This document shows positions 9,677 to 35,524 of a stretch of 64,000 nt of DNA, one piece after another. The stretch is taken from contig CALXYB010000008.1 of NCBI GenBank assembly GCA_944392835.1, forward strand, positions 4,821 to 68,820, read 5' to 3'. Below the pieces are notes generated by a model, which had not been told where the DNA came from, searched no databases, and saw only the letters and a list, made by a program, of their open reading frames with translations. Origin of the DNA: an uncultured Alphaproteobacteria bacterium. Its GTDB lineage: Bacteria > Pseudomonadota > Alphaproteobacteria > RF32 > CAG-239. How positions within the stretch are numbered: the stretch's first letter is position 1; each line of letters opens with the position of its first letter. A program made the translations under genes and the position numbers.

Positions 9677-10588
9677 TTAATTAGGATATTTTAGTAATAA
9701 TTCCAAAGCGCGTTGTCGTTCGTCTACGGAGCGGTTTTTCTTTATGCTTTTTTGTATATCTTCCGAACTGCTTTTGAAATATTTTTTATAACCTCGCTCA
9801 TCATAGATTTTATTGATAATATCCTCGTCTCTGAGTTTGGAAACATCATTACCCAATGCTTTATAAATAAGATTAGCAGCTCCATTTCCACCAAATTGTA
9901 CTGCTGTTGAAAAAACACTATCACCAACTACCGGTGAACGTTTGTCAAGATTTAGTCCTTTAATATACTTTATTTTTTCTATTGCAGGATTATAATTATT
10001 CTTAAGCATAAAATTATGTTGTGAATCCAAAAATTTAGAATCTTGCGAAAGTTTTTTCCAAGTTGATTTAAATGCATCTGTACCCGATTTTGCCGCATCA
10101 AAACCGCCTGCTTGTTGAAGTGCATTATAGAAGTCTCGATATTCTTCTTTGTTTTTCATATAATTGAGATAATCTTTCATTGTTCCTGGACCTGTAGCTA
10201 TTTGATAAGTTCCATAGCTGCATCCTCCTGTTCTATCTGCTTTACAATCATTAAAAAGTTTTTTACCGTTCTCAGATTCAGCCGCACCACTTAAAGTTCC
10301 AAGTTTATAAGAGCTTACATCATTTGTTGTATTCGCCTTAGTATTTTGAGCAATTTTATATGAAGCGGCAGTGTTTCCGATTGGTTTGGGTGTTAAATCG
10401 GCTTTTATGTTTGATGGTTCTGCTATTTGAGCTTTGTTTGAGCTTAGCCTCATCCAACCTTTTTCTATCAGGTTTCTTGGATTATACTTATAACCTTCTT
10501 GTTGTTCTCTGAAAGTAGAGTTTTTGTTTTGCTTTTTAAGTTCTTCTTCTGGATCTTCTTGAGCAATATATTGAATTAAATTTGTCAT
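9677..10588 (-). CDS. putative peptidoglycan hydrolase-like protein (GH108-like motif, PG_binding_3-like C-terminus) with conserved N-terminal MTNLIQYIAQEDP tag
   Basis: DRTGGCSYGTYQI resembles the GH108 DPGGxTxYGIT motif. C-terminal SVFSTAVQFGGNGAANLIYKALG resembles PG_binding_3. Start trimmed to ATG 10588 (ORF started at TTG 10618). N-terminus is shared with 34926..35438. Confidence 0.4.
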   Translation of the reverse strand: MTNLIQYIAQEDPEEELKKQNKNSTFREQQEGYKYNPRNLIEKGWMRLSSNKAQIAEPSNIKADLTPKPIGNTAASYKIAQNTKANTTNDVSSYKLGTLSGAAESENGKKLFNDCKADRTGGCSYGTYQIATGPGTMKDYLNYMKNKEEYRDFYNALQQAGGFDAAKSGTDAFKSTWKKLSQDSKFLDSQHNFMLKNNYNPAIEKIKYIKGLNLDKRSPVVGDSVFSTAVQFGGNGAANLIYKALGNDVSKLRDEDIINKIYDERGYKKYFKSSSEDIQKSIKKNRSVDERQRALELLLKYPN

Positions 10589-10622
10589 TTTGTGCCCTTT
10601 CGTTAACAATTTAAACAAAAAA

Positions 10623-10646
10623 ATCCGAAGAACTTAATCTTCGGAT
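10623..10646 (-). other. stem-loop + T-run in the 5' leader of 9677..10588 (attenuator-like or insulating terminator)
   Basis: atccgaagaacttaatcttcggat followed by T-run in minus orientation. Lies 35 nt upstream of the start codon. Confidence 0.4.
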
Positions 10647-10652
10647 TTTGGG

Positions 10653-10735
10653 TACACTTATAGCAAGTGATAATTTTCATATAACAAAAATATATACAAT
10701 TTTCAAGACGCAATAAAACATATCAACAACTTTTA
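10653..10735 (+). promoter_or_regulatory. duplicated promoter/operator block, copy 2
   Basis: Identical 19-bp palindrome-containing motif plus second conserved block. Lies upstream of 10842..11246. Confidence 0.45.
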
Positions 10736-10841
10736 AGAAAGCAAAATATTATTTTGTCAAATTTTGTCTTGACTGAAACATTATTTAGAGGCATAGTAAA
10801 TGAACAAATAACTCTATTATTAATATTAACACTTTGAAAAA

Positions 10842-11246
10842 ATGGAAACAAAAGAATTTCGTTTTCAAGGCACTCTGCTTGTGCCGGTTAAGAATGTGAA
10901 AACTAATATGAATTTTTTCTGGGTTGGTACGCTCCGCTCAGAAAATAATGAAGTCTTTGTGATTGCCTTTAAGGCGGAAAACAAAGACGAATTTGTCCCC
11001 CTCTTGGAAAAAGATTTGAAAGATCTCCAAGACATGGAACAAACAGACGGGGTGAAACAGCAAGTAGCGTTTATTGAAAAAACGCTCTCTGAAGTAAAAA
11101 ATCCGGTGTTTGTAAAAGATGCCGACCATAAGCTTTTAGATGCCGCTTATAGTGTTGTTTCTCAATATTTAAGAAACAACTGTTCTCCGGCTAAGTTCAC
11201 CAGAGAAAATGTCATCTATACATCGGGGATTGTGGCAGTCTATTAA
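10842..11246 (+). CDS. hypothetical protein
   Basis: 134-aa ORF. Terminator hairpin at about 11258-11296. Confidence 0.45.
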   Translation: METKEFRFQGTLLVPVKNVKTNMNFFWVGTLRSENNEVFVIAFKAENKDEFVPLLEKDLKDLQDMEQTDGVKQQVAFIEKTLSEVKNPVFVKDADHKLLDAAYSVVSQYLRNNCSPAKFTRENVIYTSGIVAVY

Positions 11247-11321
11247 TCCTCCGGTGGTACCTTAAAGAAAACTCCTTTGTGTTGTTAAACGCAAGGGAGT
11301 TTTTTGTGGTACATCCTTTTG

Positions 11322-12701
11322 TTACATATCATAAAAAACAGCGTTTTTGTCGGCGGTATAAATTCCGCCCTTATCCGCAACATCATAGTAAACATATATG
11401 ACATTGGCGCGCTGGTGTCCCCAAGCGTTAAAATTGCCAATAACTTGTCTGGATAAGCTATGCGTAAAGACGGAACGTATGGTATTATCCAAATTTATGG
11501 CAAAGACGTTGCTAAAATTCGGGCTGGTTAAAATATTCATAACCACAATGCCGCCTTTTTTCAGGTTATTTTTGACACGGATAAAATATTCCTTGGTAAT
11601 TAGATCCATCGGAATAATGCCCATAGATGAATAAGTATCCAGCACAATCAGGTCATATTTTTGTTCGCTGTCTTTTAAAAACTGGTTGGCGTCTTCCACC
11701 ACAAATTTTTTGTTGGCATCTAATTTGTGCTCTAAAAACTTTTCTTCCGAGATTTTCAAAAGCGACTTATCAATGTCTAAAAAGGTATAATTATGAAAAG
11801 TATCACCCTCGCCCATGGTAAAACCGCCCGCGCCCAAAATCAGAATATCTTTCTTTGCATCTTTGGGCAGGGTTTCAATAAAATTGTCCTGAACATAGCG
11901 CACGTAGCCAAACCACAGGTCTTTGTCCTCTGATATTTTGGAGGAATTGCCGCCATTGATGACCATTGCACGCGCTTTGCCATCATCCGTATCCAAAATG
12001 GAGATGGTGGAGACAGCGTTGTTCTCCACAATGTCATAAACTTCGCTCAATAAACTACTGCGGTTGAGCATATAAGCCAAAATTATTGTCAGCCCCAACC
12101 AATACCATGCGGCTCTTTTGGCTAAAATTACCGAAGCGACGACCGCCGCCACAACAACGACAATGATTGTATGATTAACCCCGATAAAAGGCATAATAAC
12201 CAAAGTGGTTAAAATTGACCCTAGTACCGAACCGATGGTATCAATGGCCATTATTTTTCCGGTGCAGTTGCGATTATAGCGGTTCAAGCAACGGCTGATT
12301 AAGGCTGTTATTTTGCCAAACAAATATGGTCCGCCGGACAAAAACGCCAAAGAATAAATAAAGGTTTTGAGCACATTTGACTTTATGCCCAAGGCACTCA
12401 TCAAGCCAAAATACATATCCAGCAAAATGTAGCTTGATGCCAAGACCACCAAGAAGGCAACCCAAGCGAAGTCTTTGGCTGTCGTCTGACGAATGGAATT
12501 TTGGCTTAAGGAAAGTTCGGATCCCCGCCAATAGCCCCAAGACATAAAAGCCAGAAAGATGCCGATGATGATTGAGGTGGTGATGGCTGTTGAACCAACA
12601 AAACCGCTTAATTGGCGCAAGACAATAAGCTCTAACGACAAAGAGGCATAGCCGCCGATGAATATCGCCAGCAACAAGATAAAACGGATACGGCGGGTCA
12701 T
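11322..12701 (-). CDS. membrane-anchored spermidine synthase-like (polyamine aminopropyltransferase fold) protein
   Basis: N-terminal multi-TM region. C-terminal ILILGAGGFTMGEG...LIVLD is typical of the SpeE family. Confidence 0.6.
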   Translation of the reverse strand: MTRRIRFILLLAIFIGGYASLSLELIVLRQLSGFVGSTAITTSIIIGIFLAFMSWGYWRGSELSLSQNSIRQTTAKDFAWVAFLVVLASSYILLDMYFGLMSALGIKSNVLKTFIYSLAFLSGGPYLFGKITALISRCLNRYNRNCTGKIMAIDTIGSVLGSILTTLVIMPFIGVNHTIIVVVVAAVVASVILAKRAAWYWLGLTIILAYMLNRSSLLSEVYDIVENNAVSTISILDTDDGKARAMVINGGNSSKISEDKDLWFGYVRYVQDNFIETLPKDAKKDILILGAGGFTMGEGDTFHNYTFLDIDKSLLKISEEKFLEHKLDANKKFVVEDANQFLKDSEQKYDLIVLDTYSSMGIIPMDLITKEYFIRVKNNLKKGGIVVMNILTSPNFSNVFAINLDNTIRSVFTHSLSRQVIGNFNAWGHQRANVIYVYYDVADKGGIYTADKNAVFYDM

Positions 12702-12711
12702 TATTTATTCC

Positions 12712-13998
12712 TTACAGCAAAAAATTTTCAACCGAAAAAAGGCACTCTCCGCCAACATCATAAACAACCGCGGAAACGGGCGGAAGCACCAATTTGCCAA
12801 AGGGTGCGTCCAGCTCAACAGCAGAGTTACCGATGTTAACGGCGATGTATAAATTATTGCGGAAAAAGCTTAAAAACTCATTACCAAGAGCTGATTTTTG
12901 ATAGGGGGCATCGGCCAGATGCGGATATTTTTCCCTTAATGCGGAGAGTTTTTTGATAACCTCCGTCAGCTTGTTATCTTTCCTTAACTCCAAGCAACGG
13001 CGCAAGGCCTTGTCGCCATCGGTTTTGCGGCCGCCAACACCCCATTCGCCGCCATAATAAAGCGACGGGATTCCGGGGATTGTATATAACATAGTATATA
13101 GTATAGGCAAATGGCGGCTGTCTTTTAAGGTTGAAACAAGACGGCTGACATCGTGGTTTTCGGCAAAATTATAAAGCAGATAACCTTTATATATGCCGGC
13201 AGCGTCTTCACCAAACTGCCTGTCCAGTGAATGGGCGATTTCAAACATATTATGCGTATTGCACGAAGACCAAAGGCCTTTCCAACATTCATAATTGGTT
13301 ACACTGTCAACCAGCTTTGGTCTGAGCCAGCGGCGATAATTGCCCTTAATCACCTCACCCATTAGCCAAAAATCTGGCTTGAGTCTTAAAGTGAAGTCCC
13401 GCAGTTCTTGCATAAAGTCCATATTCAGGCAATAAGCAACATCCAAGCGCAAGCCATCTATATCAAACTCTTTAATCCAAAATTCAACGGCTTTGAGCAG
13501 ATATGCCCGAACCTCCGGATTGTTGAGGTTTAAGGTTACCAAATCATCACAGCCTTCCCAAGCATGGTAACTGAAACCATCGTTATGAGCATTATTTGTG
13601 CCAAAATCTATGCTGAACCAATCCTTATAAGCCGAATTTTGCTTATTCTCTTTCACATCGCGGAAAGCAAAGAAATCTCGCCCGACATGGTTAAACACGC
13701 CGTCCAAAACCAACAACATTCCGGCTTGGTGAACAGAATCGGCAACAGCCTTAAAATCAGCATTATTTCCCAAACGCCTATCCAACGTTAAATAATCCGC
13801 CGTGTCATAGCCATGGGCGGAAGACTCCCATATCGGCCCTAAGAGCAATGTATTACACCCCAAGGATTTGATATGCGGCAACCAATTTGTGATTTTGTTG
13901 ATGCGTGTAATCGGCTTTGCCTGAAAGTCGTTGTGTTCTTCTACAGCGCAAAAGCCCAGCGGATAAATATGATAAATAATCTTTTGGTCGGTCTGCAT
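12712..13998 (-). CDS. glycoside hydrolase family 13 (alpha-amylase family) enzyme
   Basis: GH13 motifs GHDTADY, DGLRLDVA, GEVI and NHD. Start trimmed to ATG 13998 with GGAGGT RBS. Confidence 0.8.
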   Translation of the reverse strand: MQTDQKIIYHIYPLGFCAVEEHNDFQAKPITRINKITNWLPHIKSLGCNTLLLGPIWESSAHGYDTADYLTLDRRLGNNADFKAVADSVHQAGMLLVLDGVFNHVGRDFFAFRDVKENKQNSAYKDWFSIDFGTNNAHNDGFSYHAWEGCDDLVTLNLNNPEVRAYLLKAVEFWIKEFDIDGLRLDVAYCLNMDFMQELRDFTLRLKPDFWLMGEVIKGNYRRWLRPKLVDSVTNYECWKGLWSSCNTHNMFEIAHSLDRQFGEDAAGIYKGYLLYNFAENHDVSRLVSTLKDSRHLPILYTMLYTIPGIPSLYYGGEWGVGGRKTDGDKALRRCLELRKDNKLTEVIKKLSALREKYPHLADAPYQKSALGNEFLSFFRNNLYIAVNIGNSAVELDAPFGKLVLPPVSAVVYDVGGECLFSVENFLL

Positions 13999-14130
13999 GG
14001 CACCTCCGGCGTTATAAGATATAACATTAAAGTTTTTAGGCAAGCATTTTTTATTTGACAATATACCCTCATAGGGTATAATGAAAGCACCTTTTAAGAG
14101 GTTTTAATTTTAATTTTTGGAGAATAAACA

Positions 14131-14292
14131 ATGGCTTGTAATAATCCTAAATGTAAGAATCCGAACTGCACCTGCGGCGATAACTGCAAGTGTGATGAAA
14201 ACCACCAATGCGGTGAAGGCAAAGAATGCTGCAAAGATAATAAAAAAGAGAAAAAGTGCGGCGAAAAGAAATGCTGCTGCCACAAAAAGTGA
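14131..14292 (+). CDS. small Cys-rich metallothionein-like metal-binding protein (53 aa, not in ORF track)
   Basis: ATG 14131 preceded by GGAGA RBS. MACNNPKCKNPNCTCGDNCKCDENHQCGEGKECCKDNKKEKKCGEKKCCCHKK has 15 Cys in CxC/CC/CxxC patterns. Lies immediately upstream of a CsoR-family gene. Confidence 0.6.
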   Translation: MACNNPKCKNPNCTCGDNCKCDENHQCGEGKECCKDNKKEKKCGEKKCCCHKK

Positions 14293-14301
14293 GTTAAATT
14301 T

Positions 14302-14583
14302 ATGAGCGATACAGCCCATCATCCTTGCCATAAGCAAGAGCTTCCACGACTAAACCGGATTATTGGGCAGCTTGAGGGAATCAAAAAAATGATTGAGGAG
14401 CAGCGCTATTGCCCCGATATTTTGATTCAGCTTCGGGCAACGCGTTCGGCAATCCGCGCGGTGGAAAGTAATATATTAAAAACTCATTTGCAATCTTGCG
14501 TGGCGCAGTCTTTTGCTTCGCCCGAGGACCGAGACCAAAAACTCAGTGAGCTCAAAGAGCTTTTTGACCGCTTTGAAAGTTAA
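14302..14583 (+). CDS. CsoR/RcnR-family metal-sensing transcriptional repressor
   Basis: Four-helix-bundle family signature with C37...H62-x3-C66 (CsoR-type Cu(I) ligands). N-terminal AHHPCH. Confidence 0.75.
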   Translation: MSDTAHHPCHKQELPRLNRIIGQLEGIKKMIEEQRYCPDILIQLRATRSAIRAVESNILKTHLQSCVAQSFASPEDRDQKLSELKELFDRFES

Positions 14584-14587
14584 CAAA

Positions 14588-14618
14588 AAAAGAACCTCCG
14601 TTAAGAGGTTCTTTTTTT
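14588..14618. terminator. bidirectional rho-independent terminator
   Basis: aagaacctccgttaagaggttctt hairpin flanked by A-run and T-run. Confidence 0.6.
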
Positions 14619-14623
14619 TATCT

Positions 14624-14851
14624 TTATCTTACGGCATTGGCGTTGGTATCAAAATTTTTAACATTAGCATCGGTAGCAAAGTTGACCGTGTTGGTGATAG
14701 TGTGGTCAACAGAGTCTTTCAAATAGTTTTCATAAACATACATTCCACCATAACCCAAAGCTGCCAAAAGAATGATGTAAAAAATCGCTTTCATTTTTCT
14801 CTCCTTTGCTATGTTTTTTGTCAGCTTAGAATATTTATGAAAGGAATGCAA
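14624..14851 (-). CDS. small membrane-anchored hypothetical protein
   Basis: Internal MKAIFYIILLAALGYGG hydrophobic segment. True start uncertain. Confidence 0.3.
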   Translation of the reverse strand: MHSFHKYSKLTKNIAKERKMKAIFYIILLAALGYGGMYVYENYLKDSVDHTITNTVNFATDANVKNFDTNANAVR

Positions 14852-14916
14852 GCAAAAGAAAACGCCCGATGGAGATTGTCCGTGGGGCGTTTTGTTTTTT
14901 TTAGTTTCCGGCTTTC

Positions 14917-15600
14917 TTATTGCGCTTTGCGTGAATAGCGCGCATATTCCGCTTCACGCTCGGGCGAAACATCTCGGCCTTTGCCGCTCAGCTCCTTGGT
15001 CAGTTCTGCATTAGTTGACCAGGTCTGATAGAACATCGGCGTTGCTAACGGCAAAATAGAGCGAACAGCTTTGCTCATGTAATTCTGCCAAGCCAAGGAC
15101 GGATTTCCTTCGCAGCTCAAAGGCGATGTCCCATGAACCTCACATCCGTGATCTGTCCAAACTTGAACCAGTGATGTCATAAGACCACAATGCGAACGGA
15201 AGGTTTTTAAGATTTCGGCAACCTGCTCAACCAAGATATTGCCTTCTACCAGCAAAGACTTAGTTACAAGCCCCGTACCAGCAGAAGCAACATTATTCAA
15301 AGGCACGGTATAAATCGCATTACTTAACGATATATTGCCGGTTAGATGACAGATATCATCAAGAGCGGATTTATAAGACATCTGGTTTGGTTGGTGTGGC
15401 TGGTAAAACAGCCCGAAGACCATCTTGTTATCCTCACTGCCTTGTTCGCAGGCATAATACAAATCACCACGTTGCAAAAAATAACTCTGCAAAATGTTTT
15501 TGGTTTTGCCCAACAGATGTTTAATTTCACTCTCGGCATCTCTTATAAAATCAGCCGAAAAATAAGGAATAAAGATTCCCGGGATTAATTTTCTTTCCAT
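14917..15600 (-). CDS. hypothetical protein
   Basis: 227-aa ORF with coding-like composition, flanked by terminators. No recognisable domain. Confidence 0.45.
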   Translation of the reverse strand: MERKLIPGIFIPYFSADFIRDAESEIKHLLGKTKNILQSYFLQRGDLYYACEQGSEDNKMVFGLFYQPHQPNQMSYKSALDDICHLTGNISLSNAIYTVPLNNVASAGTGLVTKSLLVEGNILVEQVAEILKTFRSHCGLMTSLVQVWTDHGCEVHGTSPLSCEGNPSLAWQNYMSKAVRSILPLATPMFYQTWSTNAELTKELSGKGRDVSPEREAEYARYSRKAQ

Positions 15601-15728
15601 ATACTTAGAGATTTAATTATAAAAAAACTTGTGTTTCAAGTTAATGCGTTTTTGTCTATCTGTCAAACATTAAATGCTTGCCAAGCGCATTTTCTTTGCA
15701 TATCTTGCTAAAAAACAATGGAGATGAG

Positions 15729-16181
15729 ATGGAAGAGTTTGTTAACTATGGTTATTTGGGCTTGTTTGCCGCGGCTTTTTTGGCGGCGACCATTTTGCCC
15801 GTGGGCTCGGAGCCGTTGTTTGCAATGATGATTGCCATGGATTTTGACGTTTGGCTTTGTTTGCTGTTTGCCTCAATCGGAAACTGGCTCGGCGGAATGA
15901 CAAATTATTGGCTCGGACGGTTAGGCAAAATTGAATGGGCCAAGAAATATCTTAAAATGAGCCCCGAGAAATTTGATAAGCTTCAACATAATTTAGCGCA
16001 ATATGGTGCGGGGATGGCTTTTTTCAGCTTTTTACCGCTTATCGGAGACTTAATTGCTTTTGGCTTGGGATATGTGCGCGCCAAGCAAAGCATTGTCGCT
16101 TTCTCTATGCTTTTGGGCAAGGTCTTTCGCTATGCGCTCATCGTTTATGCCGTTTTCTTTGGTAAAGATATCTTGTTATAA
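15729..16181 (+). CDS. YqaA/DedA-family membrane protein
   Basis: N-terminus NYGYLGLFAAAFLAATILPVGSE matches the YqaA family. GGAG RBS before ATG 15729. Confidence 0.6.
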   Translation: MEEFVNYGYLGLFAAAFLAATILPVGSEPLFAMMIAMDFDVWLCLLFASIGNWLGGMTNYWLGRLGKIEWAKKYLKMSPEKFDKLQHNLAQYGAGMAFFSFLPLIGDLIAFGLGYVRAKQSIVAFSMLLGKVFRYALIVYAVFFGKDILL

Positions 16182-16225
16182 AATTTTAAACTTTTGCGAC
16201 TATATTAAAAACCGAATCATTAATT

Positions 16226-17401
16226 ATGCAGGAGGTTGTTATGGCTAATCGCTTTATCCTGAATGAAACAAGTTATCACGGACACGGCGCGGTCAACGAG
16301 CTTGTGCCGGAGGTTAAGAGCAGAGGTTTTAAGAAAGCCTTGATTGTTACCGATGCCGACTTGGTTAAGTTTAAGGTGGTTAAGAAAGTTACGGATATTT
16401 TGGACAAGAACAAAATGTCTTATGAGATTTTTGACAAGGTTAAGGCCAACCCGAGTGTGGAGATTGTGCAAGAGGGCGTTAAGGCCTTCAAAAAAGCCAA
16501 AGCCGACTATATGATTGCCATTGGCGGTGGCTCGCCGCAAGATACGGCCAAAGGTATCGGTATTATCATTAACAACCCCGAATTTGCCGATGTGGTTTCT
16601 TTGGAAGGTGTGGCTCCGACCAAAAATAAAAGCGTGCCGGTTATCGCAATTGCAACAACAGCCGGAACAGCTGCCGAAACCACCATCAATTATGTGATTA
16701 CGGACGAAAAGAAACGCCGCAAGTTTGTTTGCGTTGACCCACATGATATTCCGGTTGTGGCTATTGTTGACCCGGATATGATGTCCAGTATGCCTAAAGG
16801 GTTGACTGCGGCAACGGGTATGGATGCCCTGACACACGCGATTGAGGGTTATACGACACTCGGCGCCTGGGAGCTGGCGGATACACTCAACCTAAAAGCG
16901 ATTGAGCTGATTGCAAAAAACTTGCGCAAAGCCGTTGACAACGACCCCGACGGGCGCGAAGGTATGGCTCTGGGACAATATGTTACCGGTATGGCTTTTT
17001 CTAATGTGGGTTTGGGTGTGGTTCATGGAATGGCGCATCCGCTCTCGGCTTTTTATGATACACCACATGGTGTGGCAAACGCTGTTTTGCTGCCTTATGT
17101 GATGGAATTTAACGCTCCCTACACGGGCACAAAATTCCGCGATATTGCCAAGGCAATGGGTGTGAAAAAAGTTGATGAAATGAAGCAAGCCGAATATCGG
17201 GAAGCAGCAATTAAGGCGGTTAAGAAACTTTCCAAAGATGTGGGGATTCCGAAGACGCTTAAGGAAATCGGCGTGAAGAAAGAAGACTTGGAAGCTTTGG
17301 CCGAGGCGGCAATGGCTGATGTCTGCACCGGAGGCAATCCCCGTCCCTGCAGCAAAGAGCTGGTCTTAGAAGTTTATAAAAAAGCCTTTAACGGCAAATA
17401 A
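16226..17401 (+). CDS. iron-containing alcohol dehydrogenase (lactaldehyde/propanediol oxidoreductase-like)
   Basis: GGGSPQDTAKG NAD-binding motif. Conserved metal-ligand His residues. 391 aa. Confidence 0.85.
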   Translation: MQEVVMANRFILNETSYHGHGAVNELVPEVKSRGFKKALIVTDADLVKFKVVKKVTDILDKNKMSYEIFDKVKANPSVEIVQEGVKAFKKAKADYMIAIGGGSPQDTAKGIGIIINNPEFADVVSLEGVAPTKNKSVPVIAIATTAGTAAETTINYVITDEKKRRKFVCVDPHDIPVVAIVDPDMMSSMPKGLTAATGMDALTHAIEGYTTLGAWELADTLNLKAIELIAKNLRKAVDNDPDGREGMALGQYVTGMAFSNVGLGVVHGMAHPLSAFYDTPHGVANAVLLPYVMEFNAPYTGTKFRDIAKAMGVKKVDEMKQAEYREAAIKAVKKLSKDVGIPKTLKEIGVKKEDLEALAEAAMADVCTGGNPRPCSKELVLEVYKKAFNGK

Positions 17402-18283: not shown

Positions 18284-18301
18284 AAACTTTTCCCCTAAAC
18301 A

Positions 18302-27790: not shown

Positions 27791-28666
27791 TTAATGCCCG
27801 AGATAATACCATTCGGTATTGATATCTGCTTGGCTGTTGGGAAGCAGAATAAAACCATCATTCGGCGCATATAGTTCTTCTCCGTCTGCATAAACGGCGA
27901 TTTTTTCTCCACGGCTTATCGGGTCCAGATGTTTGTAATTTTTGCAAAGTTTGCCTTCTTTGGTCTTGAGTACGTAGCTATCCATCTGAATATGCTTCTT
28001 GGGGTGGGTTTTGATCTGATTATGCTCTATCAACCCAAATACAGCTAAAGTGCTTTTAATCGCCTTATAAGCTAAATCCACCGCCGCGGGGGACTTGTGG
28101 TAACCGCATTCAACCGTTGTGCCCGTATTGCCCAAAATATGTGCGCATTGCTCGGTGGAGAAATCCTGAATGGCACTTTCCCCACTATAGATTTTCGGCC
28201 AACCTTCCAAAACAAAATCCACCTCCAGCGCGGAGATGAGCTTTTGATTATCTTCATTCGGATAATCGCAAAAAGCAAAAGGAACATCACCCTCACAATG
28301 GGTGGAATGCAGGTCTAACATAATCTGATGATTTTGAATCAGGGGGTAAATCTCGTTGGCTAATTTTTGCTCATAAGTTTTTGGATTGGCGTGATAAGTT
28401 ATTACCCTGTTCAAGTTCTCTTCCACGCAGCGCTCATCTTTTTTATAAGCCTCGGGGTTGCATATCGGGACCAAGGTTAAGCGTCCGCCTTTAAGCTTCA
28501 ACTCGCCGCTGTTTAGCTCCTTTATAACCTTAAATGCGGCATTGGTTCCCGCGGTTTCGTTGCCATGGATGGCGGCTAAGACCAAAAGGCTTATGCCCTC
28601 CTCTCCTCCATTAAACTCATATTTTTCAATCATCAAAATTCTCCTTGGGCAAAATAATAACCTCAT
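27791..28666 (-). CDS. succinylglutamate desuccinylase/aspartoacylase family zinc hydrolase
   Basis: LAAIHGNETAG zinc-binding motif. Family-typical length. Confidence 0.65.
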   Translation of the reverse strand: MRLLFCPRRILMIEKYEFNGGEEGISLLVLAAIHGNETAGTNAAFKVIKELNSGELKLKGGRLTLVPICNPEAYKKDERCVEENLNRVITYHANPKTYEQKLANEIYPLIQNHQIMLDLHSTHCEGDVPFAFCDYPNEDNQKLISALEVDFVLEGWPKIYSGESAIQDFSTEQCAHILGNTGTTVECGYHKSPAAVDLAYKAIKSTLAVFGLIEHNQIKTHPKKHIQMDSYVLKTKEGKLCKNYKHLDPISRGEKIAVYADGEELYAPNDGFILLPNSQADINTEWYYLGH

Positions 28667-28731
28667 CTTGCAAGTTTACAAGCAAAAAACAAAATCCCCG
28701 CCTTGACGGACGAGGTTTTATTAATCTGCCC

Positions 28732-30027: not shown

Positions 30028-30097
30028 CTTCTTTACTTAATATTTTAGTGAATGGCTTGGTTTTATTCCATTTTCAGCCTTTTGTCAATTTTTTATA

Positions 30098-30427
30098 TCA
30101 AAGTCTTTTCCAGGTGCGTTGCTTGTTTTTCTCTTCCTTGTCCCGAAAGGCTTGCTCCAAATCAATGTTATGCATATTGGCCAAAGAGCAGAGATAAATA
30201 AAAACATCGGCTAATTCTTCCGCCACATTGCCGACGGTTGAGCCGGAGCCGATACTACCTGTTTTTGAATTTTTACGCACGGCAGAAATTACCTCACCGC
30301 ATTCTTCCGCAAATAAGCAACATTCATAAAACTTATCTGTCGTATTAAAGCCCCTTTCCTGCTTCATCTTTAGGACATATTCCTGAAAATCTTTAAGGGT
30401 CGGCTCTTTCTTTAGCTCCAAGGTCAT
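30098..30427 (-). CDS. MazG-like nucleotide pyrophosphohydrolase domain protein
   Basis: ECGEVISAVRK...EELADVFIYL EExxE/D motifs. Confidence 0.6.
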   Translation of the reverse strand: MTLELKKEPTLKDFQEYVLKMKQERGFNTTDKFYECCLFAEECGEVISAVRKNSKTGSIGSGSTVGNVAEELADVFIYLCSLANMHNIDLEQAFRDKEEKNKQRTWKRL

Positions 30428-30560
30428 CTCTTACTCCTTTGCTTGTTTTCTTTTTATTGAATTAGAAAACGGCGACAAAGGCAAGAAAATATTTTACCTT
30501 TCTATCTTTCTCTTTCTTCGCAATAAAAAAACCCTCCACTGCGGGAGGGAATTTTTTTAT

Positions 30561-31346
30561 TTAATATTGCAAGATCTCATTATCATCAGGAACTACAACA
30601 TTTTTTAACTTTAGTTTTTTGATGTCATCTCTTGTAACTGTCAAATGGCTGACTGTGTCCATATGGCTGGCAACAATAATCGCTGAAGGCGCATAGGCGG
30701 CTATGGTCTTGACATCCTCATCATTCATAATGATTCTTTCCCCATTAAGCAAAGTTGCACCACAAGCATTAACAATAATCACATCCGGCGTGAACTTATT
30801 GATTGCTGCAATCACTTCATCGCACCAAATTGTGTCTCCGGCAAGATATAGCGTTTTTTCTGTCTTCGCTTTAAAAACTACGCCCATAGCATCATAGGGC
30901 ATATTGATTTGTTCACATAGGGGTTTAATGATTTCTCTTTTTCCGTGTTGTCCGCCGGTTTTATAAAGCATGCTACCTTCAAAACTCGTTCCATCTTCAG
31001 ACATGATGTTTACATTCTTAAAGCCTAAGGATTTAATTTTATCTAAATCTTCCTCACTTTGCACAAAGAAAGGCAAGTTTTTATCAATAGCCTCAACGGC
31101 GAATTCATCCCAATGATCCGGATGAAAATGGGTTAAAATCACGGCATCAACATCAACAATATCTGAAATAGGTAAAGGTAAATCTACCCTGGGTTGGCGC
31201 ACGTTGGCATTTACGGCCACGTCAAAGCCCGCCATATAGCCTTTGGGCATAAGCCATGGATCAATCAAAAATCTCGTTTTGTTATAGGTGATTATGAGAG
31301 TGGCATTGCGTATTTGATGTATTTGCATATTATTTACTCCAATCAA
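30561..31346 (-). CDS. MBL-fold metallo-hydrolase
   Basis: HFHPDHW motif. Confidence 0.7.
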   Translation of the reverse strand: MIGVNNMQIHQIRNATLIITYNKTRFLIDPWLMPKGYMAGFDVAVNANVRQPRVDLPLPISDIVDVDAVILTHFHPDHWDEFAVEAIDKNLPFFVQSEEDLDKIKSLGFKNVNIMSEDGTSFEGSMLYKTGGQHGKREIIKPLCEQINMPYDAMGVVFKAKTEKTLYLAGDTIWCDEVIAAINKFTPDVIIVNACGATLLNGERIIMNDEDVKTIAAYAPSAIIVASHMDTVSHLTVTRDDIKKLKLKNVVVPDDNEILQY

Positions 31347-31896
31347 AATCAGTTAATGTTTTTTTCAGATGTTGGGTATAATCACGAATAAAATTGACGG
31401 CAAAAACAACTTCTTTTTCATTATAACGGCTTAAAAATTTTAAGTCTTTTTTATGCCATTTTTGGTGAATATTCTCGTGCGCTTGAAAAACCTTTTTACC
31501 GTGTTCCGTCAGTTTGTAATAAATCTCTTTTTTATTGTTTGGCGTTTGATAAGGTATAATTGTATTTTTGGAAATAAGTTTTTTTATCAATTTGCTAATT
31601 CCGCCGCGGGTGATATTCAAATCCTGCGAGATTTTTGTTACATTTGAATCTTCTATTTTGCCTATGTGTTCTATACAATGCAGTTCTGTAATTGTATAAT
31701 TTTGCAAAATTGCCTCAGCCTTGTCCTTGAACGAGTTTTGCATAAGCTCAAAGGTATTAAGCAGCACTGAAAGAAACGTATTTAAATCTTTTTCCATAAT
31801 TGGCCTCTGGAAATATTCTGACATTACAATAAATTTATATAAGATATTTTGTTTCCTTGTCAACAAAATATGGACTAAAGATTTAGTATTCTGCAT
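31330..31896 (-). CDS. MarR-family transcriptional regulator
   Basis: Winged-helix region ITRGGISKLIKKLISKNTIIPYQTPNNKKEIYYKLTEHG. Confidence 0.55.
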   Translation of the reverse strand: MQNTKSLVHILLTRKQNILYKFIVMSEYFQRPIMEKDLNTFLSVLLNTFELMQNSFKDKAEAILQNYTITELHCIEHIGKIEDSNVTKISQDLNITRGGISKLIKKLISKNTIIPYQTPNNKKEIYYKLTEHGKKVFQAHENIHQKWHKKDLKFLSRYNEKEVVFAVNFIRDYTQHLKKTLTDFDWSK

Positions 31897-31911
31897 AAAT
31901 AGTAGAAACAG

Positions 31912-32439
31912 TCAGGCAAGATGAGTGAGAATAAAGCTCTTCCATTCATCAAGCTTTTCTTTCGGGCTTTTGCGCGCGTTGGCAGAACTTGTGGACGGCA
32001 AGACATTATTTCCGTTATTGGTTCGTGTTAACAGCCAATTTTTTAAATCTTCGTTTTTTTCTTGCCGGATATATTTATCAAACAGCTTTTTGGCATTGCG
32101 ACTATTAAAAACAATATATTTAATTTTCGGGCAATTTTGCTTTATGATAGAAAAATCGTTATATTCCTGCTTGGTGATGGTGTTATCACTGCTCCCTTGA
32201 ATATGACAAGTTTTTATAACATCCCACAAACCGACACCATTTTTCAATAAGCAAGCGTAACGCTCCGCGCTGTTACCGTTTATGACTTCCTCCGCGTTAA
32301 AAATATCAGCAATGATTTTCCAAAACTGGTTTTGCGGATTGTTATAATAACACTTGTTTCTTGATTTTTTACTTGGAAAAGTCCCTAAGATGATTAACTT
32401 TGTTTCCTTATCAAAAACATAATCCAGACCTTTTTCCAT
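31912..32439 (-). CDS. uracil-DNA glycosylase superfamily protein (family-6 hypoxanthine-DNA-glycosylase-like)
   Basis: Motif A-like LIILGTFPS and motif B-like LPSTSSAN. Size about 175 aa. Confidence 0.45.
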   Translation of the reverse strand: MEKGLDYVFDKETKLIILGTFPSKKSRNKCYYNNPQNQFWKIIADIFNAEEVINGNSAERYACLLKNGVGLWDVIKTCHIQGSSDNTITKQEYNDFSIIKQNCPKIKYIVFNSRNAKKLFDKYIRQEKNEDLKNWLLTRTNNGNNVLPSTSSANARKSPKEKLDEWKSFILTHLA

Positions 32440-32490
32440 TTTATACCTCTATGTTTAGCCCTATCTTTTCGCCCTTTGAGATGTTTTAAA

Positions 32491-33036
32491 TTAGAGCTTA
32501 ATCCAATATCTTTTGTATTTTTGACCGCTATTATCCCATGGCAAAGTAATAATATTTTCTAAAACACCATTATTTTTTTCAATGGCTTTCCATGAGCCTA
32601 TATTTTTCTCTTTGGCGGCTAAAAGTAATTTATCCATTTCAAGCTCTCGCGCTTTAGATATGAGCAACGCCAAGCCTTTGGTCGCATATCCCATTCTTCT
32701 GTATTTTGGTGTAATTCCATAACCAACATTTCCGCCGACATACATCAAAAAATCATTCAATTTAGTTCGCAAATTAAAAGCACCTATAAACCTGCCGTTA
32801 TCAATGAGCCAATATGTGATTTGCGGCGCATTGGGATAATATTTGCCGTCATCTCTTAACCTTGGTGTCGGGTCATAAGGTTTTAATAATTTATTCCTCA
32901 GAAAAGCCTCAAAATCTTTTTCAATCTCGGCTATTTCCTCAACACTCTTTGGAGATTGTGAACCTAAATAAAAACCTTCTCTTAAAGCTTCTATAAAACT
33001 ATCTTTATATTTTATGTCCGGCTTAACTAATTCCAT
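32491..33036 (-). CDS. GNAT-family N-acetyltransferase
   Basis: RRMGYATKGLALLISKAREL acetyl-CoA-binding motif. Confidence 0.6.
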   Translation of the reverse strand: MELVKPDIKYKDSFIEALREGFYLGSQSPKSVEEIAEIEKDFEAFLRNKLLKPYDPTPRLRDDGKYYPNAPQITYWLIDNGRFIGAFNLRTKLNDFLMYVGGNVGYGITPKYRRMGYATKGLALLISKARELEMDKLLLAAKEKNIGSWKAIEKNNGVLENIITLPWDNSGQKYKRYWIKL

Positions 33037-33160
33037 AAATTTACCCCTTCTAAAAATATTAATGTTTTATAGCATAGCCAAAAGAAATAAAATAGCCTAA
33101 AAATTATTCGGATAAAAAAATGAAACATCAAAACTTGATAAAAGTCCTACAAATAAAAAA

Positions 33161-33196
33161 GGCAGCCGTTTCATTGACTGCCATTTTAATTGGTTA
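33161..33196 (+). repeat. terminator hairpin + degenerate island-boundary core (attttaattggtta)
   Basis: ggcagccgtttcattgactgcc hairpin, then a core related to the TTGGTGAT repeats further right. Coincides with the GC-content drop. Confidence 0.35.
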
Positions 33197-33478
33197 TTTT
33201 CTTTTTAAAAGATGAAGTAATATTATAATCAACACTGGTGAAAGTAATAATAATGCATAGAACTCAAGCTCAGAAAGCTCCACTAGATAATTAAGTCCAA
33301 AAACAATTAAAATTGGAGAAAGTCCAAAGACAATCCTTAAAAAATGCCAATCTTCGGTCACTGTATCATGATCACAATCTGTCCAACGATATATCTTAGG
33401 ATAAATATAACATCCATAAATGAAAAGCATTAATCCCAAAACAACCAATAAACTTCCGATTATCTTTACTGTTTCCAT
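33194..33478 (-). CDS. small membrane protein, hypothetical
   Basis: Three TM helices. Confidence 0.35.
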   Translation of the reverse strand: METVKIIGSLLVVLGLMLFIYGCYIYPKIYRWTDCDHDTVTEDWHFLRIVFGLSPILIVFGLNYLVELSELEFYALLLLSPVLIIILLHLLKRK

Positions 33479-33690
33479 AATAATATTATTAAATAGTTAA
33501 ACATTATGATTAAATTTTGTTAAATTATAATATGTTAAAAAAATAAGTAAAGATTTTAATATAAAAAATTTGGACGAAATAAAAAAACAACATCAAACTA
33601 AAAAACTGTTTGTATTAGTGATGCGGTTAGCCTAAGATTGCGGAAATATTTCCTAATCACAAGTTATTTATAATCATTAAAATGCGAGAT

Positions 33691-34011
33691 TTATATATTA
33701 TAAAAGTTGGTAAAATAGACATATCTCGCCAAATAAACAAGAGCCGGTATGGATAGAATGATATAGGCTTTTTTGAGATTTGTTTTACGCTTTTTCCAAG
33801 CATAAACCGTAGGTGCAATTATTATCAACAATATTGTTAATGTCATTATGGTATAGTTAAACCTATTTTCATATGCCCAACCTAATGCCTCTGCATTCCA
33901 TGGCATTTGGTTGCTACTCATTTCTTTTGGATATGTTATGGCATATATAAAAACTAAAAATCCATTTAAGGACAATAAGAGATAAAACAGTATGAGTTTG
34001 ATTTTTTTCAT
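33691..34011 (-). CDS. small membrane protein, tandem paralog 1
   Basis: About 90% nucleotide identity to 34146..34466 over about 320 bp. Confidence 0.4.
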   Translation of the reverse strand: MKKIKLILFYLLLSLNGFLVFIYAITYPKEMSSNQMPWNAEALGWAYENRFNYTIMTLTILLIIIAPTVYAWKKRKTNLKKAYIILSIPALVYLARYVYFTNFYNI

Positions 34012-34145
34012 AATTGCACCTTCGATTAAATTTATTCAAAGTATATTCAGCATTTACCTTAAATACAATAAAAATCACCAACAATCTTTATCATATTTTA
34101 CATTAAGAATCATATCATGCCCATATTTCTTAAATTTAAATGAGG

Positions 34146-34466
34146 CTATATATTAAAAAAGTTGATAAAATAAATATATTGTATCAGATATAAAAGAGCC
34201 GGGATGGATAGAATTATATAGGCTTTTTTGAGATTTGTTTTACGCTTTTTCCAAGCATAAATCGTAGGTGCAATTATTATCAACAATATTGTTAATGTCA
34301 TTATGGTATAGTTAAACCTATTTTCATATGCCCAACCTAATGCCTCTGCATTCCATGGCATGCTGTCACTTGTCATATCATCTGGATATGTTACTGCAAT
34401 GATAAAAACCGCAAAGGCATATAATCCTGACAATAGATAAAACGGTATGAGTTTGATTTTTTTCAT
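34146..34466 (-). CDS. small membrane protein, tandem paralog 2
   Basis: Start trimmed to MKKIKLIPFYLL. Near-identical C-terminal two-thirds to paralog 1. Confidence 0.4.
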   Translation of the reverse strand: MKKIKLIPFYLLSGLYAFAVFIIAVTYPDDMTSDSMPWNAEALGWAYENRFNYTIMTLTILLIIIAPTIYAWKKRKTNLKKAYIILSIPALLYLIQYIYFINFFNI

Positions 34467-34480
34467 AATTGCACCTTCGG

Positions 34481-34876
34481 TTAAAGCGGAATACATTTTT
34501 GAACTTTATTCCAACTCAAGCAATCATTTCTGCATATGTGTTGGTCATAGTCCCATACCAAGCCATTATCAAGACAAGAATCCAATTGATGTGCTCGCTT
34601 GATATTCGCATTAAATAAAAACATTTGAAGAAAAGCTAAAAAAATGAGCATTACAAAAATATAATGTTTTTGTTTATATCTATTAAACACCCAAAAAATT
34701 AGTCCCCAACACAATGTTGTGATGATTGCCACGTAAGGAATATGCGCCATTGATGCTTCTTCATTTTCCGTAATATAAGCTTCATAAATCAGAAACAAAA
34801 CTATTGGCGTAATCAAAATTCCTTTAACAATTATATGCATTGCTTTAAGAAATAACTCTTTGGTTTGTTTTTTCAT
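34481..34876 (-). CDS. membrane protein, hypothetical
   Basis: TM helices plus C-terminal Cys-containing tail. Overlaps start of paralog 2 (coupled). Confidence 0.4.
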   Translation of the reverse strand: MKKQTKELFLKAMHIIVKGILITPIVLFLIYEAYITENEEASMAHIPYVAIITTLCWGLIFWVFNRYKQKHYIFVMLIFLAFLQMFLFNANIKRAHQLDSCLDNGLVWDYDQHICRNDCLSWNKVQKCIPL

Positions 34877-34925
34877 ATATGTTTCTCCTTAAAGTTATTC
34901 TATGAGCAATATTTATATTTGCAAG

Positions 34926-35438
34926 TTATTTGTAGTAATCGCGTGGATTACGAGAGCAACTTTCTAAAAGATTTTTTCCCGATTTTGCTCCCTGCCAACC
35001 TCTACGATTTGCTTCCCAATCATCTGATGATGCTTGAATTCCATCTTTCATTACTCCATACGGAAATTCTCGTGCTGTACTTAAAGTTTTTGCAACAAAT
35101 TCTCCCCATTTTCCCCTTTTAGCGGCTTCATAATTTGCTTTACAATGAAAAAATTTATCATTTCCTATAGTGGCATCTTCTTCCATCTCTTTTTTATTTT
35201 GCACAAAGTCATAAAATGGAGCTAATAACCCCGTTCTTGTTTTTCCTGGATAATTAGATTTATTTTTCTGCATATATTCATTGAGATGAGCCTCTGTCTT
35301 TTTTCCCCAATTTTCAGAAATATTTGATTTTTTTGTTCTATATGTTTCTAAATAATCCTTTTTACTATTTTCAATATTATCAATAGAAAATTTTTTAGAA
35401 GGATCTTCTTGTATAATATATCTTATTAAATTACTCAT
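34926..35438 (-). CDS. serum amyloid A (SAA) domain protein with N-terminal MSNLIRYIIQEDP tag
   Basis: IGNDKFFHCKANYEAAKRGKWGEFVAKTLSTARE and DDWEANRRGWQGAKSG align closely with the vertebrate SAA core ([34 protein letters not shown] ... ADQAANEWGRSG). Start trimmed to ATG 35438 with AAGGA RBS. Confidence 0.65.
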   Translation of the reverse strand: MSNLIRYIIQEDPSKKFSIDNIENSKKDYLETYRTKKSNISENWGKKTEAHLNEYMQKNKSNYPGKTRTGLLAPFYDFVQNKKEMEEDATIGNDKFFHCKANYEAAKRGKWGEFVAKTLSTAREFPYGVMKDGIQASSDDWEANRRGWQGAKSGKNLLESCSRNPRDYYK

Positions 35439-35477
35439 TTCTTTTTCCTTATTCTTTGTTAATTTTAGATACAAAAA

Positions 35478-35524
35478 AACCGTTGATTTTCATCAACGGT
35501 TTTTAGACGCACTTTTCCCAAGTG
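35478..35524 (-). promoter_or_regulatory. leader stem-loop + CACTT-N5-AAGTG palindrome upstream of the SAA-like gene
   Basis: aaccgttgattttcatcaacggtt hairpin with T-run, then cacttttcccaagtg palindrome. Same architecture as upstream of 9677..10588. Confidence 0.4.

Follow-up and report, generated by a model that had tools for sequence, protein, structure and literature searches.

A short N-terminal tag and a phage-type late leader shared by two otherwise unrelated predicted toxin genes of an uncultured gut alphaproteobacterium

We analysed a 64,000-nucleotide (nt) stretch of contig CALXYB010000008.1 (GenBank assembly GCA_944392835.1; hereafter, the window) from an uncultured alphaproteobacterium, in which two minus-strand genes encode proteins that begin with the same tag, MxNLIxYIxQEDP. 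Gene 1 begins MTNLIQYIAQEDP and gene 2 begins MSNLIRYIIQEDP; 10 of the 13 residues and 30 of the 39 nt are identical, and the two proteins show no similarity beyond approximately residue 15. A preliminary description of this DNA had proposed a common N-terminal tag on two otherwise unrelated proteins, and the alignment bears this out. No further open reading frame (ORF) of the 64-kb window carries the tag. Both genes lie in AT-rich islets (~30% GC) within a surrounding background of 42-44% GC. The program-made ORF calls begin at upstream TTG codons (positions 10618 and 35474), which mask the shared ATG, as had also been proposed; homologues begin at the ATG, and a ribosome-binding site (RBS; AAGGG in gene 1, AAGGA in gene 2) is positioned before it. 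The two genes and their tags are as follows.

9677..10588, minus strand: gene 1, predicted tagged toxin of 303 amino acids (aa) (translation; Pfam; AlphaFold2; Foldseek)
10550..10588, minus strand: tag, codons 1-13 of gene 1, MTNLIQYIAQEDP (translation)
34926..35438, minus strand: gene 2, predicted tagged toxin of 170 aa, SAA/Lipocone-like (translation; Pfam; AlphaFold2; Foldseek)
35400..35438, minus strand: tag, codons 1-13 of gene 2, MSNLIRYIIQEDP (translation)

The preliminary description had considered that the pair might have no further family members; many more were found. Searches with gene 1 returned homologues that are 60-88% identical over the first 30-50% of the query only and then continue into GH108 with or without PG_binding_3, SAA, or other domains. 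A degenerate codon-pattern scan of species-representative genomes identified 23 tagged genes at 22 loci, all in metagenome-assembled genomes (MAGs) of uncultured (alpha)proteobacteria, with 2-3 or more tagged genes per genome, some of them in tandem. Another 54 loci came from metagenomes; most bear a human-gut label, and up to three cassettes can occur in one tandem array. In total there are ~70 distinct cassettes, and the family is restricted to one lineage. A profile of the ~95-aa N-terminal module matched only 38 clusters in 1.84 billion representatives, with nearly all matches at the protein N-terminus. The tag was found in 0 of 2.9 million IMG/VR contigs and 0 of 50,697 phage genomes, and the N-terminal head matched nothing in Pfam, NCBIfam, PHROGs, or PDB.

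The family-wide consensus of the tag is M[STPAG]NLI[QR]YIxQ[ED][DA]P, in which a small residue (S, T, P, A, or G) always occupies position 2. The nucleotide identity between the two window tags, which had been suggested as a measure of their relatedness, is uninformative by itself because both use preferred AT-rich codons; homologues decided whether the peptide is conserved. The codon-pattern scan fixed the tag residues, and conservation was therefore judged from the homologues found by protein search, all of which begin M[STPG]NLI[QR]YI.Q[ED][DA]P. Across 39 distinct cassette starts, synonymous codons at the tag positions vary freely. Since synonymous sites vary while the residues stay constant in the protein-search homologues, the tag appears to be selected as a peptide. 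Based on these comparisons, the 13-residue tag forms the constant start of a disordered N-terminal module, and its conservation is at the peptide level.

Approximately eight or more C-terminal types occur behind the same tag and module. They include VgrG3-C-like, GH108, and two SAA types, Gly-rich domains without a family match, and others without identification; two more were assigned from sub-threshold matches, one SLT-like and one pesticin-like lysozyme (PF16754, 20.9 and 18.5 bits, with a cut-off of 25.8). All identifiable C-terminal domains are envelope-acting, and no cytoplasm-acting toxin domain was seen among the domains identified. Sec signals are absent from the tagged toxins, and Pfam, NCBIfam, and PHROGs identified no PAAR, Rhs, LXG/WXG, MuF, TPS, MIX, FIX, RIX, or adaptor domain in the tagged proteins. 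Judged by sequence, genes 1 and 2 are members of a lineage-restricted family of predicted polymorphic antibacterial toxins. The proposal of a modular cassette thus held insofar as the tag and a regulatory leader are joined to many unrelated C-terminal domains; the part that made the tag a secretion or chaperone-binding signal gained no support. No secretion system was seen among the window genes scanned, and the gene families that recur next to cassettes include neither secretion nor regulator genes.

In gene 1, residues 96-290 matched PF21277 (T6SS_VgrG3-like_C) with an E value of 8.6e-35 and 120.8 bits against a cut-off of 27. The AlphaFold2 model, built from 34 sequences, has a predicted local distance difference test (pLDDT) score <50 at residues 1-91 and is confident at residues 96-303. 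Foldseek aligned the model with Vibrio cholerae VgrG3-C (4NOO/4NSO) at 29% identity and a target-normalised TM-score of 0.72, and GH46 chitosanases ranked next. Gene 1 is therefore predicted to encode a peptidoglycan hydrolase with the VgrG3-C/chitosanase fold. The earlier label of GH108-like was dropped for gene 1, which has no PF05838 match; GH108 is instead an alternative C-terminal domain of the paralogues P0100, P0102, P0104, and P0237. The N-terminal module of gene 1 recurs fused to other toxin domains in P0100-P0115. Two of its motifs are conserved, GY[KR]YNPRNLIEKGW and PKPIGNxAASYKIAQN, the latter at the junction before the toxin domain.

10304..10549, minus strand: rest of the disordered N-terminal module, gene 1 residues 14-95 (alignment; AlphaFold2 pLDDT <50)
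9719..10303, minus strand: VgrG3-C-like catalytic domain, gene 1 residues 96-290 (Pfam; Foldseek)

The junction motif, LSPKP(I/L)GN.A.SY.IAQN (window 10304-10360, gene 1 residues ~65-95), also occurs in P0057 and P0088 despite their different heads. Recombination or processing ahead of the toxin domain could take place at this motif. Two further N-terminal heads in related gut bacteria carry the same toxin domains and immunity families, and neither is in curated families. Head B reads YKSPLGY..IDSYGVDH..STRDE.EYQ (P0057, P0084, P0018, P0031), and head C reads (S/T)RE..L..I.NG..P..R.NP..GE..YYY, also written MTRETYDILNNIFNGQTPLKRTNP...EYYY (P0088, P0022, P0024, P0033, L036:6128-6865).

Gene 2 matched PF00277 (SAA) at 59.8 bits against a cut-off of 30.8. 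The AlphaFold2 model has a mean pLDDT of 81, and the best Foldseek matches are SAA1/SAA3, with target-normalised TM-scores of 0.61-0.71; the SAA-like label given earlier is thus retained. In the model, residues 2-9 of the tag form a short helix (pLDDT ~67), and residues 13-16 form a linker modelled with low confidence. The sNxxG(R) motif of the SAA clade appears as ANRRGW at residues 143-148, with the final R replaced by W. From its sequence and predicted structure, gene 2 is assigned to the SAW clade of SAA/Lipocone proteins. Prokaryotic SAA domains are described as lipid-head-group-directed tips of polymorphic toxins, coupled to an immunity domain with four cysteines (4-Cys) (PMC12419801).

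34980..35213, minus strand: SAA domain, gene 2 residues 76-153 (Pfam)

Orthologues of gene 2 retain the tag. The nearest database relative, P0001 (a cluster of 74 sequences), reads MYLKLTKNKEKRYIIQEDP, where MSNLI is missing and the frame from the upstream TTG runs into the gene. Such a start may be a genuine 5' deletion variant, or it may be a gene-calling or assembly artefact.

Before both genes we found the elements that had been proposed as a common 5' leader, namely a palindrome, a hairpin with a T-run, and an RBS. The inverted repeat CACTT-N5-AAGTG occurs in exact form at 10655-10669, 35510-35524, and 9070-9084, three copies compared with 0.07 expected; three or more were obtained in 0 of 100 shuffles. 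Terminator-like hairpins with T-runs are located at 10620-10649 and 35475-35504, ending ~30-35 nt before the ATG; such hairpins were counted once against 0.1 expected and twice against 0.5 expected. The components of the two leaders are listed from 5' to 3' for each gene, followed by a partial third copy.

10713..10734, minus strand: upstream element AAAAGTTGTTGATATGTTTTAT of class I cassette promoters (two in the window compared with 0.03 expected; conserved)
10678..10706, minus strand: predicted promoter of gene 1, with -35 TTGAAA, a 17-nt spacer, and -10 TATATG (inference; missed by a strict consensus scan)
10655..10669, unstranded: inverted repeat of gene 1, at or just past the predicted transcription start (motif count; alignment)
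10613..10649, minus strand: predicted intrinsic terminator of gene 1, AAAATCCGAAGA-loop-TCTTCGGATTTTTTT (hairpin scan; folding)
10595..10599, minus strand: RBS AAGGG of gene 1 (read from the sequence; position conserved in the alignment)
35534..35576, minus strand: predicted class II promoter of gene 2, with a TAGGAA box, CTTTAC (-35), and a -10 (inference; laid out as in the late promoter of a T7-like element described below, from a comparison with L096, L029, and L037)
35510..35524, unstranded: inverted repeat of gene 2 (motif count; alignment)
35468..35504, minus strand: predicted intrinsic terminator of gene 2, AAAAACCGTTGA-loop-TCAACGGTTTTTTT, with a stem unlike that of gene 1 (hairpin scan; folding)
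35446..35450, minus strand: RBS AAGGA of gene 2 (read from the sequence)
9070..9118, minus strand: third inverted repeat (9070-9084) and upstream element (9097-9118), without a core promoter or terminator

An alignment of 24 upstream regions extends this arrangement to the family. From 5' to 3', the regions contain an upstream box, a CTTGA(A/C) -35, ~17 nt, a TATA-like -10, ~8-10 nt, CACTT-N5-AAGTG, TRTCYAAA, the terminator hairpin with its T-run, ~25 nt, the RBS, and the ATG; the CTTGA and TATA columns are conserved. The terminator is present in 66 of 69 evaluable cassettes. Among the three without it, those in L016 and L025 are embedded in an element operon, and that in L013 has an imperfect hairpin. 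The terminator falls into at least two sequence classes, with four compensatory stem pairs between classes. The stem-loop and T-run noted earlier are thus present, and they are better described as an attenuator-type terminator because they are placed between the promoter and the RBS. Arrays of near-identical leaders are present among the cassettes. In the inverted repeat, two lineages have wobble-compatible changes (CGCTT/AAGTG and TACT/AAGTG), and in one lineage (L039, L056:3290-3330, L092) the repeat is swapped for an unrelated GAAATC-N8-GATTTC directly before the same terminator.

Rfam gave no leader match at the gathering score and chance-level hits only, and no tRNA or tmRNA was found in the leaders or in the upstream GC-rich stretches. 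An alternative antiterminator fold was considered and rejected, as folding yields a 5' hairpin and the terminator only. In predicted folds, the U-tract past the terminator pairs weakly with the purine-rich Shine-Dalgarno region (window 10589-10620; L028:5715-5750), a pairing that could add translational occlusion in read-through transcripts. At 9070-9118, an exact CACTTATAGCAAGTG and the AAAAGTTGTTGA upstream element precede two small multi-transmembrane (TM) ORFs at 8743..9000 and 8170..8598 (both minus strand); from its sequence, this region probably represents a cassette leader that was rearranged and now drives orphan immunity-like genes.

A profile built from the toxin leaders also matched a ~12-kb T7-like element in gut MAGs (nhmmer E values of 6e-6 to 7e-5). 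One strand of this element carries the S24 repressor gene plus a small gene, and the other strand carries two early genes. Its late genes encode a 104-aa protein, TerL, Hydrolase_2, a GTA_holin_3TM holin, portal, scaffold, major capsid protein, tubular A, nozzle, and a gp14-like protein. The portal homologues are 60-95% identical across many Alphaproteobacteria, and in at least five portal clusters the element occupies the same site, between YhdP and Abhydrolase_2/SBP_bac_3/MlaC/gltX. In the element loci examined, we saw no genes for an integrase, replication, or a fibre, no gp15/gp16 analogues, and no protease; elements related to it elsewhere do encode a T7-type fibre at the corresponding position. 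From this gene content, the element looks like a domesticated or decaying podovirus. Our literature searches found no described T7-like domesticated element in Alphaproteobacteria and nothing relevant on secretion systems of gut RF32 Alphaproteobacteria. The element loci are the following.

L029:4670-16850
L037:5130-16940
L093-L097
L099:6710-16820
L016
L025

The element leader separates the early genes from the first late gene and consists of a TAGGAA box, CTTGAC, a -10, CACTT-N5-TAGTG-TRTC-YAAA, a terminator, and the ATG. Within it, CACTTNNNNNTAGTGTRTC occurs exactly once per locus in seven element loci, always between the early genes and the first late gene and always followed by the terminator; variant forms occur in L098 and L099. 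The class II cassette promoters, including that of gene 2, have the TAGGAA/-35 arrangement of the element late promoter. Based on these alignments, the 5' region shared by the cassettes matches the late-operon promoter and leader of the element, in the order TAGGAA or GTTGT box, -35, -10, CACTT-N5-WAGTG-TRTCYAAA, terminator, and RBS. An AGGAA-N4-TTCCT "palindrome" in the class II promoters was rejected as a separate feature; it is better read as the TAGGAA box followed by the -35, as in the element late promoter. An operator shared with the S24 early-control region was also rejected, as no copy of CACTT-N5-AAGTG occurs there.

Tagged toxins are also found within the element itself. In L016 and L025, which represent two species, the structural operon ends with the gene of a tagged pesticin-like lysozyme, which has no leader of its own. 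The genes are arranged as portal, Bbp19-like, scaffold, major capsid protein, tubular A, nozzle, gp14-like, a 64-aa protein, and the tagged toxin, with a convergent candidate immunity gene next. One 199-kb contig contains both the element and a free-standing tagged toxin, 135 kb apart. In a different prophage, toxins with another head (MTRETY..., Tlde1-like and VgrG3-C-like) directly follow holin, endolysin, i-spanin, and o-spanin genes. Because these other-head toxins adjoin the spanin genes of another prophage, the coupling of such toxins to phage late or lysis transcription appears to be recurrent. In front of a second MTRETY-head toxin copy, the final ~100 nt of the o-spanin gene are repeated (L036:7900-8000, L035:1600-1722), apparently as a footprint left when the cassette was duplicated.

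We also considered the tag as a mimic of the T7-type fibre N-terminus (MANVIKTVLTYQLDG vs MANLIRYITQEDP) and rejected it. A profile of 28 fibre N-termini (consensus xRVQYxADG...FxYPFPIF) gave the tags -2.4 to 1.2 bits, and they rank 130-2430 of 2558 N-termini. Further observations concern individual element loci. The element in L099 has a truncated TerL and lacks lysis genes. In L029, GC-rich ~45-bp repeats, GGAAGACCGCTGRCCTCAYTCGCT...GCGGTGAC, flank the element (4672-4722 and 16800-16850), and one of them stands in the place of a deleted toxin gene. In L096, the variable 3' end of the element (16100-16650) is taken up by similar GC-rich repeats. These may be a small mobile or repetitive extragenic palindromic-like repeat. 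Past the element in L096, an 86-aa TM ORF (15831..16091) resembles by eye the small TM ORFs of the 9070 region of the window.

Most of the domain types examined are accompanied by a small gene, located 3' of the toxin gene or convergent with it, whose product has a signal peptide or TM segments. The 4 candidates in the window are as follows.

9194..9673, plus strand: candidate immunity gene of gene 1, 159 aa, N-terminal signal/anchor, convergent (homology to convergent ORFs)
34481..34876, minus strand: candidate immunity gene of gene 2, 131 aa, three TM segments and a C-terminal 4-Cys domain (conserved neighbour)
34146..34496, minus strand: small TM ORF past the candidate immunity gene of gene 2, paralogous to the next (cluster common to L013)
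33691..34011, minus strand: small TM ORF, paralogous to the preceding (cluster common to L013)

The neighbour of gene 1 clusters (n=7) with convergent ORFs beside VgrG3-C-like toxins that bear two other N-terminal heads. Because this neighbour family recurs across three different heads, the predicted immunity gene tracks the toxin domain and not the head. SAA toxins are followed by a 121-132-aa protein with three TM segments and a 4-Cys domain, which is kept in 4 of 4 SAA-type cassettes examined (L001, L013, L017, and the window); the 4-Cys domain of the gene 2 neighbour agrees with the prokaryotic SAA immunity domain of PMC12419801. Opposite the GH108, pesticin-like, and VgrG3-C-like toxins there is a convergent secreted protein or lipoprotein. 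In L029, the toxin gene is deleted and its candidate immunity gene is retained. Most domain types thus have a predicted cognate secreted or membrane immunity-like gene, and the paralogous TM ORFs at 34146..34496 and 33691..34011 may be extra or orphan immunity genes.

Taken with analogous systems, these sequence comparisons lead us to favour, tentatively and just short of calling it probable, a reading in which the cassettes are trans-encoded late genes of the element, and their products are bacteriocin-like toxins that are released by lysis and carry an import tag. Inactivation of the S24 repressor would allow an early product to modify transcription at the leader, the candidates being the two early genes directly upstream of the late leader, which sit where lambda has Q. 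RNA polymerase would then pass the leader terminator. Because the cassettes share late control, toxin synthesis would be confined to cells committed to lysis, with release by the element holin and endolysin. Outside, the toxins would act like bacteriocins of the colicin M, pesticin, or S-pyocin type, with the tag and the following linear motifs serving as Ton/Tol-box-like import epitopes that lead into the periplasm of cells without the immunity gene. That the tag itself is such an epitope, by analogy with colicin M, pesticin, and S-pyocins, we regard as possible but doubtful; it is favoured because the module is disordered and has three linear motifs, the toxin domains act in the periplasm, the predicted immunity proteins are periplasmic and convergently encoded, and the cassettes are scattered and have promoters of their own.

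Several findings weigh against this proposal of late-controlled, imported toxins. No Q, N, RfaH/LoaP, or PrtN homologue was recognised among the early genes, whose products (108-110 aa and 129-146 aa) have no Pfam or PHROG match. The 64-kb window does not contain a T7-like element, and co-residence in this genome is deduced from related MAGs. No compensatory change was found in the 5-bp inverted repeat, in which most departures break pairing; because most changes break the pair, yet two are wobble-compatible and one is a replacement, the repeat data fit an RNA hairpin and a DNA site alike. No receptor-binding domain is evident in the 170-aa SAA type. Finally, the operon-embedded toxin sits at the place of the T7 internal virion proteins in an element without gp15/gp16, which favours a role as particle cargo.

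As cargo, the toxins would be loaded by the tag onto or into a T7-like particle, much like proteins with the T4 capsid targeting sequence or the internal virion proteins of T7, and ejected into the periplasm of an attached cell. The immunity genes would then shield kin or block superinfection, in the way that Spackle of T4 counters gp5 lysozyme. A promoterless tagged lysozyme that ends the structural operon where T7 has gp15/gp16 fits this account, as does an element that lacks both large internal-core proteins and the fibre that its relatives have at that place. It is also consistent with envelope-acting domains in every identifiable case, a tag at the extreme N-terminus with a residue 2 that is always small, a late leader like that of the structural genes, and the association of a different head with a different prophage type. 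However, most elements (L037, L093, L096) have no toxin in the operon, and the toxin is therefore not a core part of the element; the other-head toxins adjoin a lysis cassette and not morphogenesis genes; a ~90-aa disordered module with three linear motifs exceeds what a loading tag needs; and the tag scores nothing against T7-type fibre N-termini and is absent from the viral contigs and phage genomes searched. We consider particle loading rather unlikely, and we doubt still more the fuller version in which the element is a domesticated podovirus working as a toxin-delivery particle, with exchangeable tag-loaded cargo and immunity that defines kin. If it were true, the particle would be a head-containing phage-derived weapon unlike tailocins, extracellular contractile injection systems, or gene transfer agents. 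Export by a dedicated machine is quite improbable. The tag would then mark effectors for a type VI secretion system (T6SS; cf. MIX/FIX/RIX), flagellar type III export, or another apparatus, and VgrG3-C, Tlde1, and GH108 domains with periplasmic immunity genes are indeed typical of T6SS effector-immunity pairs, the toxins are without Sec signals, and flagellin genes are present in these bacteria. Nevertheless, neither T6SS genes nor those of other secretion systems turned up among the window genes scanned, the cassette-neighbour families, or the gene tables of the context loci, no PAAR, MIX, Rhs, LXG, or adaptor domain was identified, and the phage-element late leader and late-operon placement would be left unexplained.

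The leader can also be read differently, with CACTT-N5-AAGTG as a DNA operator for a dimeric repressor at the transcription start and the terminator as an insulator only. The half-sites are near-constant around a free 5-nt spacer without compensatory change, and the repeat lies just downstream of the -10, where the LexA boxes of colicin genes sit; insulation would suit a terminator that is bidirectional, flanked by A- and T-runs, and often near convergent immunity genes. Yet in 66 of 69 cassettes, and in all the element late leaders examined, the terminator follows the promoter, so that any transcript started there must pass it. The two wobble-compatible changes and the one unrelated repeat fit an RNA stem, the most conserved stretch, WAGTGTRTCYAAA, is asymmetric, and the early-control region beside the S24 repressor holds no copy, all of which make simple operator repression unlikely. 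Very improbable, in our assessment, is that the shared 5' end has no part in trafficking and is only a recombination handle or translation-initiation module. Duplicated cassettes do drag flanking DNA with them, as the o-spanin 3' end before the second toxin shows, and near-identical leader arrays exist. Against such a role, synonymous tag sites are free while the residues are constant in the protein-search homologues, which argues for selection on the tag peptide and not on DNA identity, and the tag is kept across all C-terminal types and both promoter classes.

The preferred reading, in which the cassettes are late-controlled bacteriocin-like toxins, has its closest parallel in the pyocins. 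S-type pyocins and R/F tailocins are under the control of PrtR/PrtN and P boxes. Like the cassettes, the Pseudomonas aeruginosa pyocin regulon comprises scattered toxin-immunity genes with modular N-termini and swappable killing domains, and their regulatory motif is common to a domesticated phage cluster that bears an S24-type repressor and lysis genes. In contrast to the pyocin regulon, the cluster here encodes a T7-like head and tail plus a terminase, where a tailocin has a tail only, and the shared motif includes the leader terminator, not an activator box alone; no PrtN/PrtR homologue was identified, and no nuclease or tRNase toxins were seen. In colicin M and pesticin, the TonB box is a short motif at residues 2-7 of a flexible N-terminus. 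Their killing activities are similar to those predicted here (lipid II-directed in colicin M, lysozyme-like in pesticin), and their immunity proteins are periplasmic and often convergently encoded; the combination of a periplasm-acting killing domain with a predicted periplasmic immunity protein is present in our family, in which the pesticin hits are sub-threshold. However, NLIxYIxQEDP is not a recognised TonB box and resembles one only in its position and disordered context, no receptor-binding domain was identified, and the cassettes have a phage-like late leader instead of LexA boxes. Lipid II-directed activity has been predicted for SAA/Lipocone proteins (PMC12419801).

With respect to regulation, the element resembles the lambdoid Q/PR'/qut/tR' region in layout only: regulator genes are directly upstream of the promoter, and a terminator follows within ~60 nt, then lysis and structural genes. 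Q-dependent Shiga toxin is under the same control and is released by phage lysis. Here, however, we recognised no protein of the Q family, copies of the leader stand at many unlinked chromosomal sites, and the element is T7-like and apparently incomplete as a phage. In the capsid targeting sequence (CTS) of T4, ~10 N-terminal residues and conserved upstream signals are common to unrelated polymorphic proteins. The internal-protein loci of T-even phages thus share with the cassettes a short N-terminus and upstream expression signals on otherwise unrelated polymorphic proteins, but the T4 CTS is phage-encoded and cleaved by the prohead protease, whereas the element has no protease and the genes here are chromosomal and paired with immunity genes. 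The gene transfer agent of Rhodobacter capsulatus (RcGTA) is likewise a phage-derived structural cluster that is inherited vertically, lacks genes for replication and integration, and has co-regulated accessory loci, and one element gene is Pfam GTA_holin_3TM. RcGTA is siphovirus-like and CtrA/GafA-controlled, whereas the element, known from its genes, is T7-like with an S24 repressor.

Polymorphic toxins have a conserved N-terminal trafficking part, a variable toxin tip, and a linked immunity gene (Zhang et al. 2012, PMC3482391). The tagged family shares with them a conserved junction motif before the toxin domain, and phage-associated delivery of such toxins has already been proposed for MuF phage-head toxins. 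Unlike in those systems, the head here is only 13 residues and a disordered linker, with no recognised trafficking domain, and a link to a shared transcription leader is not described for polymorphic toxin systems in the literature searched.

Several parts of this arrangement were known before, namely polymorphic toxins, VgrG3-C, prokaryotic SAA tips, phage-tied bacteriocin regulons, and late antitermination. New, as far as our searches show, are the N-terminal head, the copying of a late leader to unlinked toxin cassettes, and the syntenic fibre-less T7-like element. The head adds a previously unnamed N-terminus to the polymorphic toxins of uncultured human-gut Alphaproteobacteria, a poorly known group. 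Unlinked toxin-immunity cassettes would be tied to a phage-derived element by copying its entire late promoter/terminator leader, giving a regulon that can be read from sequence, and the syntenic T7-like element may itself represent a new type of domesticated alphaproteobacterial phage. If our reading is true, the toxins should be induced with the element, the small early protein should act at CACTT-N5-WAGTG and the terminator, and the 13-residue tag should be enough for particle loading or import. A portable tag would offer a handle for protein delivery, and the leader, a compact inducible switch.

Other genes of the window were annotated alongside the two cassettes. An AT-rich island beside gene 2 (36092-45486) contains radical SAM, AAA kinase-like, HIT, AlaX-like, and LD-carboxypeptidase genes, as well as a match to the MetK N-domain only and an Hsp70/MreB-like ATPase gene with two partner genes lacking identification; this region could be a defence or modification cluster. 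The region 45500-64000 contains a DUF6291 gene (45881..46540), a chloramphenicol acetyltransferase gene (47138..47764), and two large serine recombinase genes (58907..60436 and 61806..63404), and from this content it looks like an integrated mobile element with a resistance gene. At 51856-54744, a gene encodes a 962-aa autotransporter with a PF03797 beta-domain, and a related 1203-aa protein is encoded in L026.

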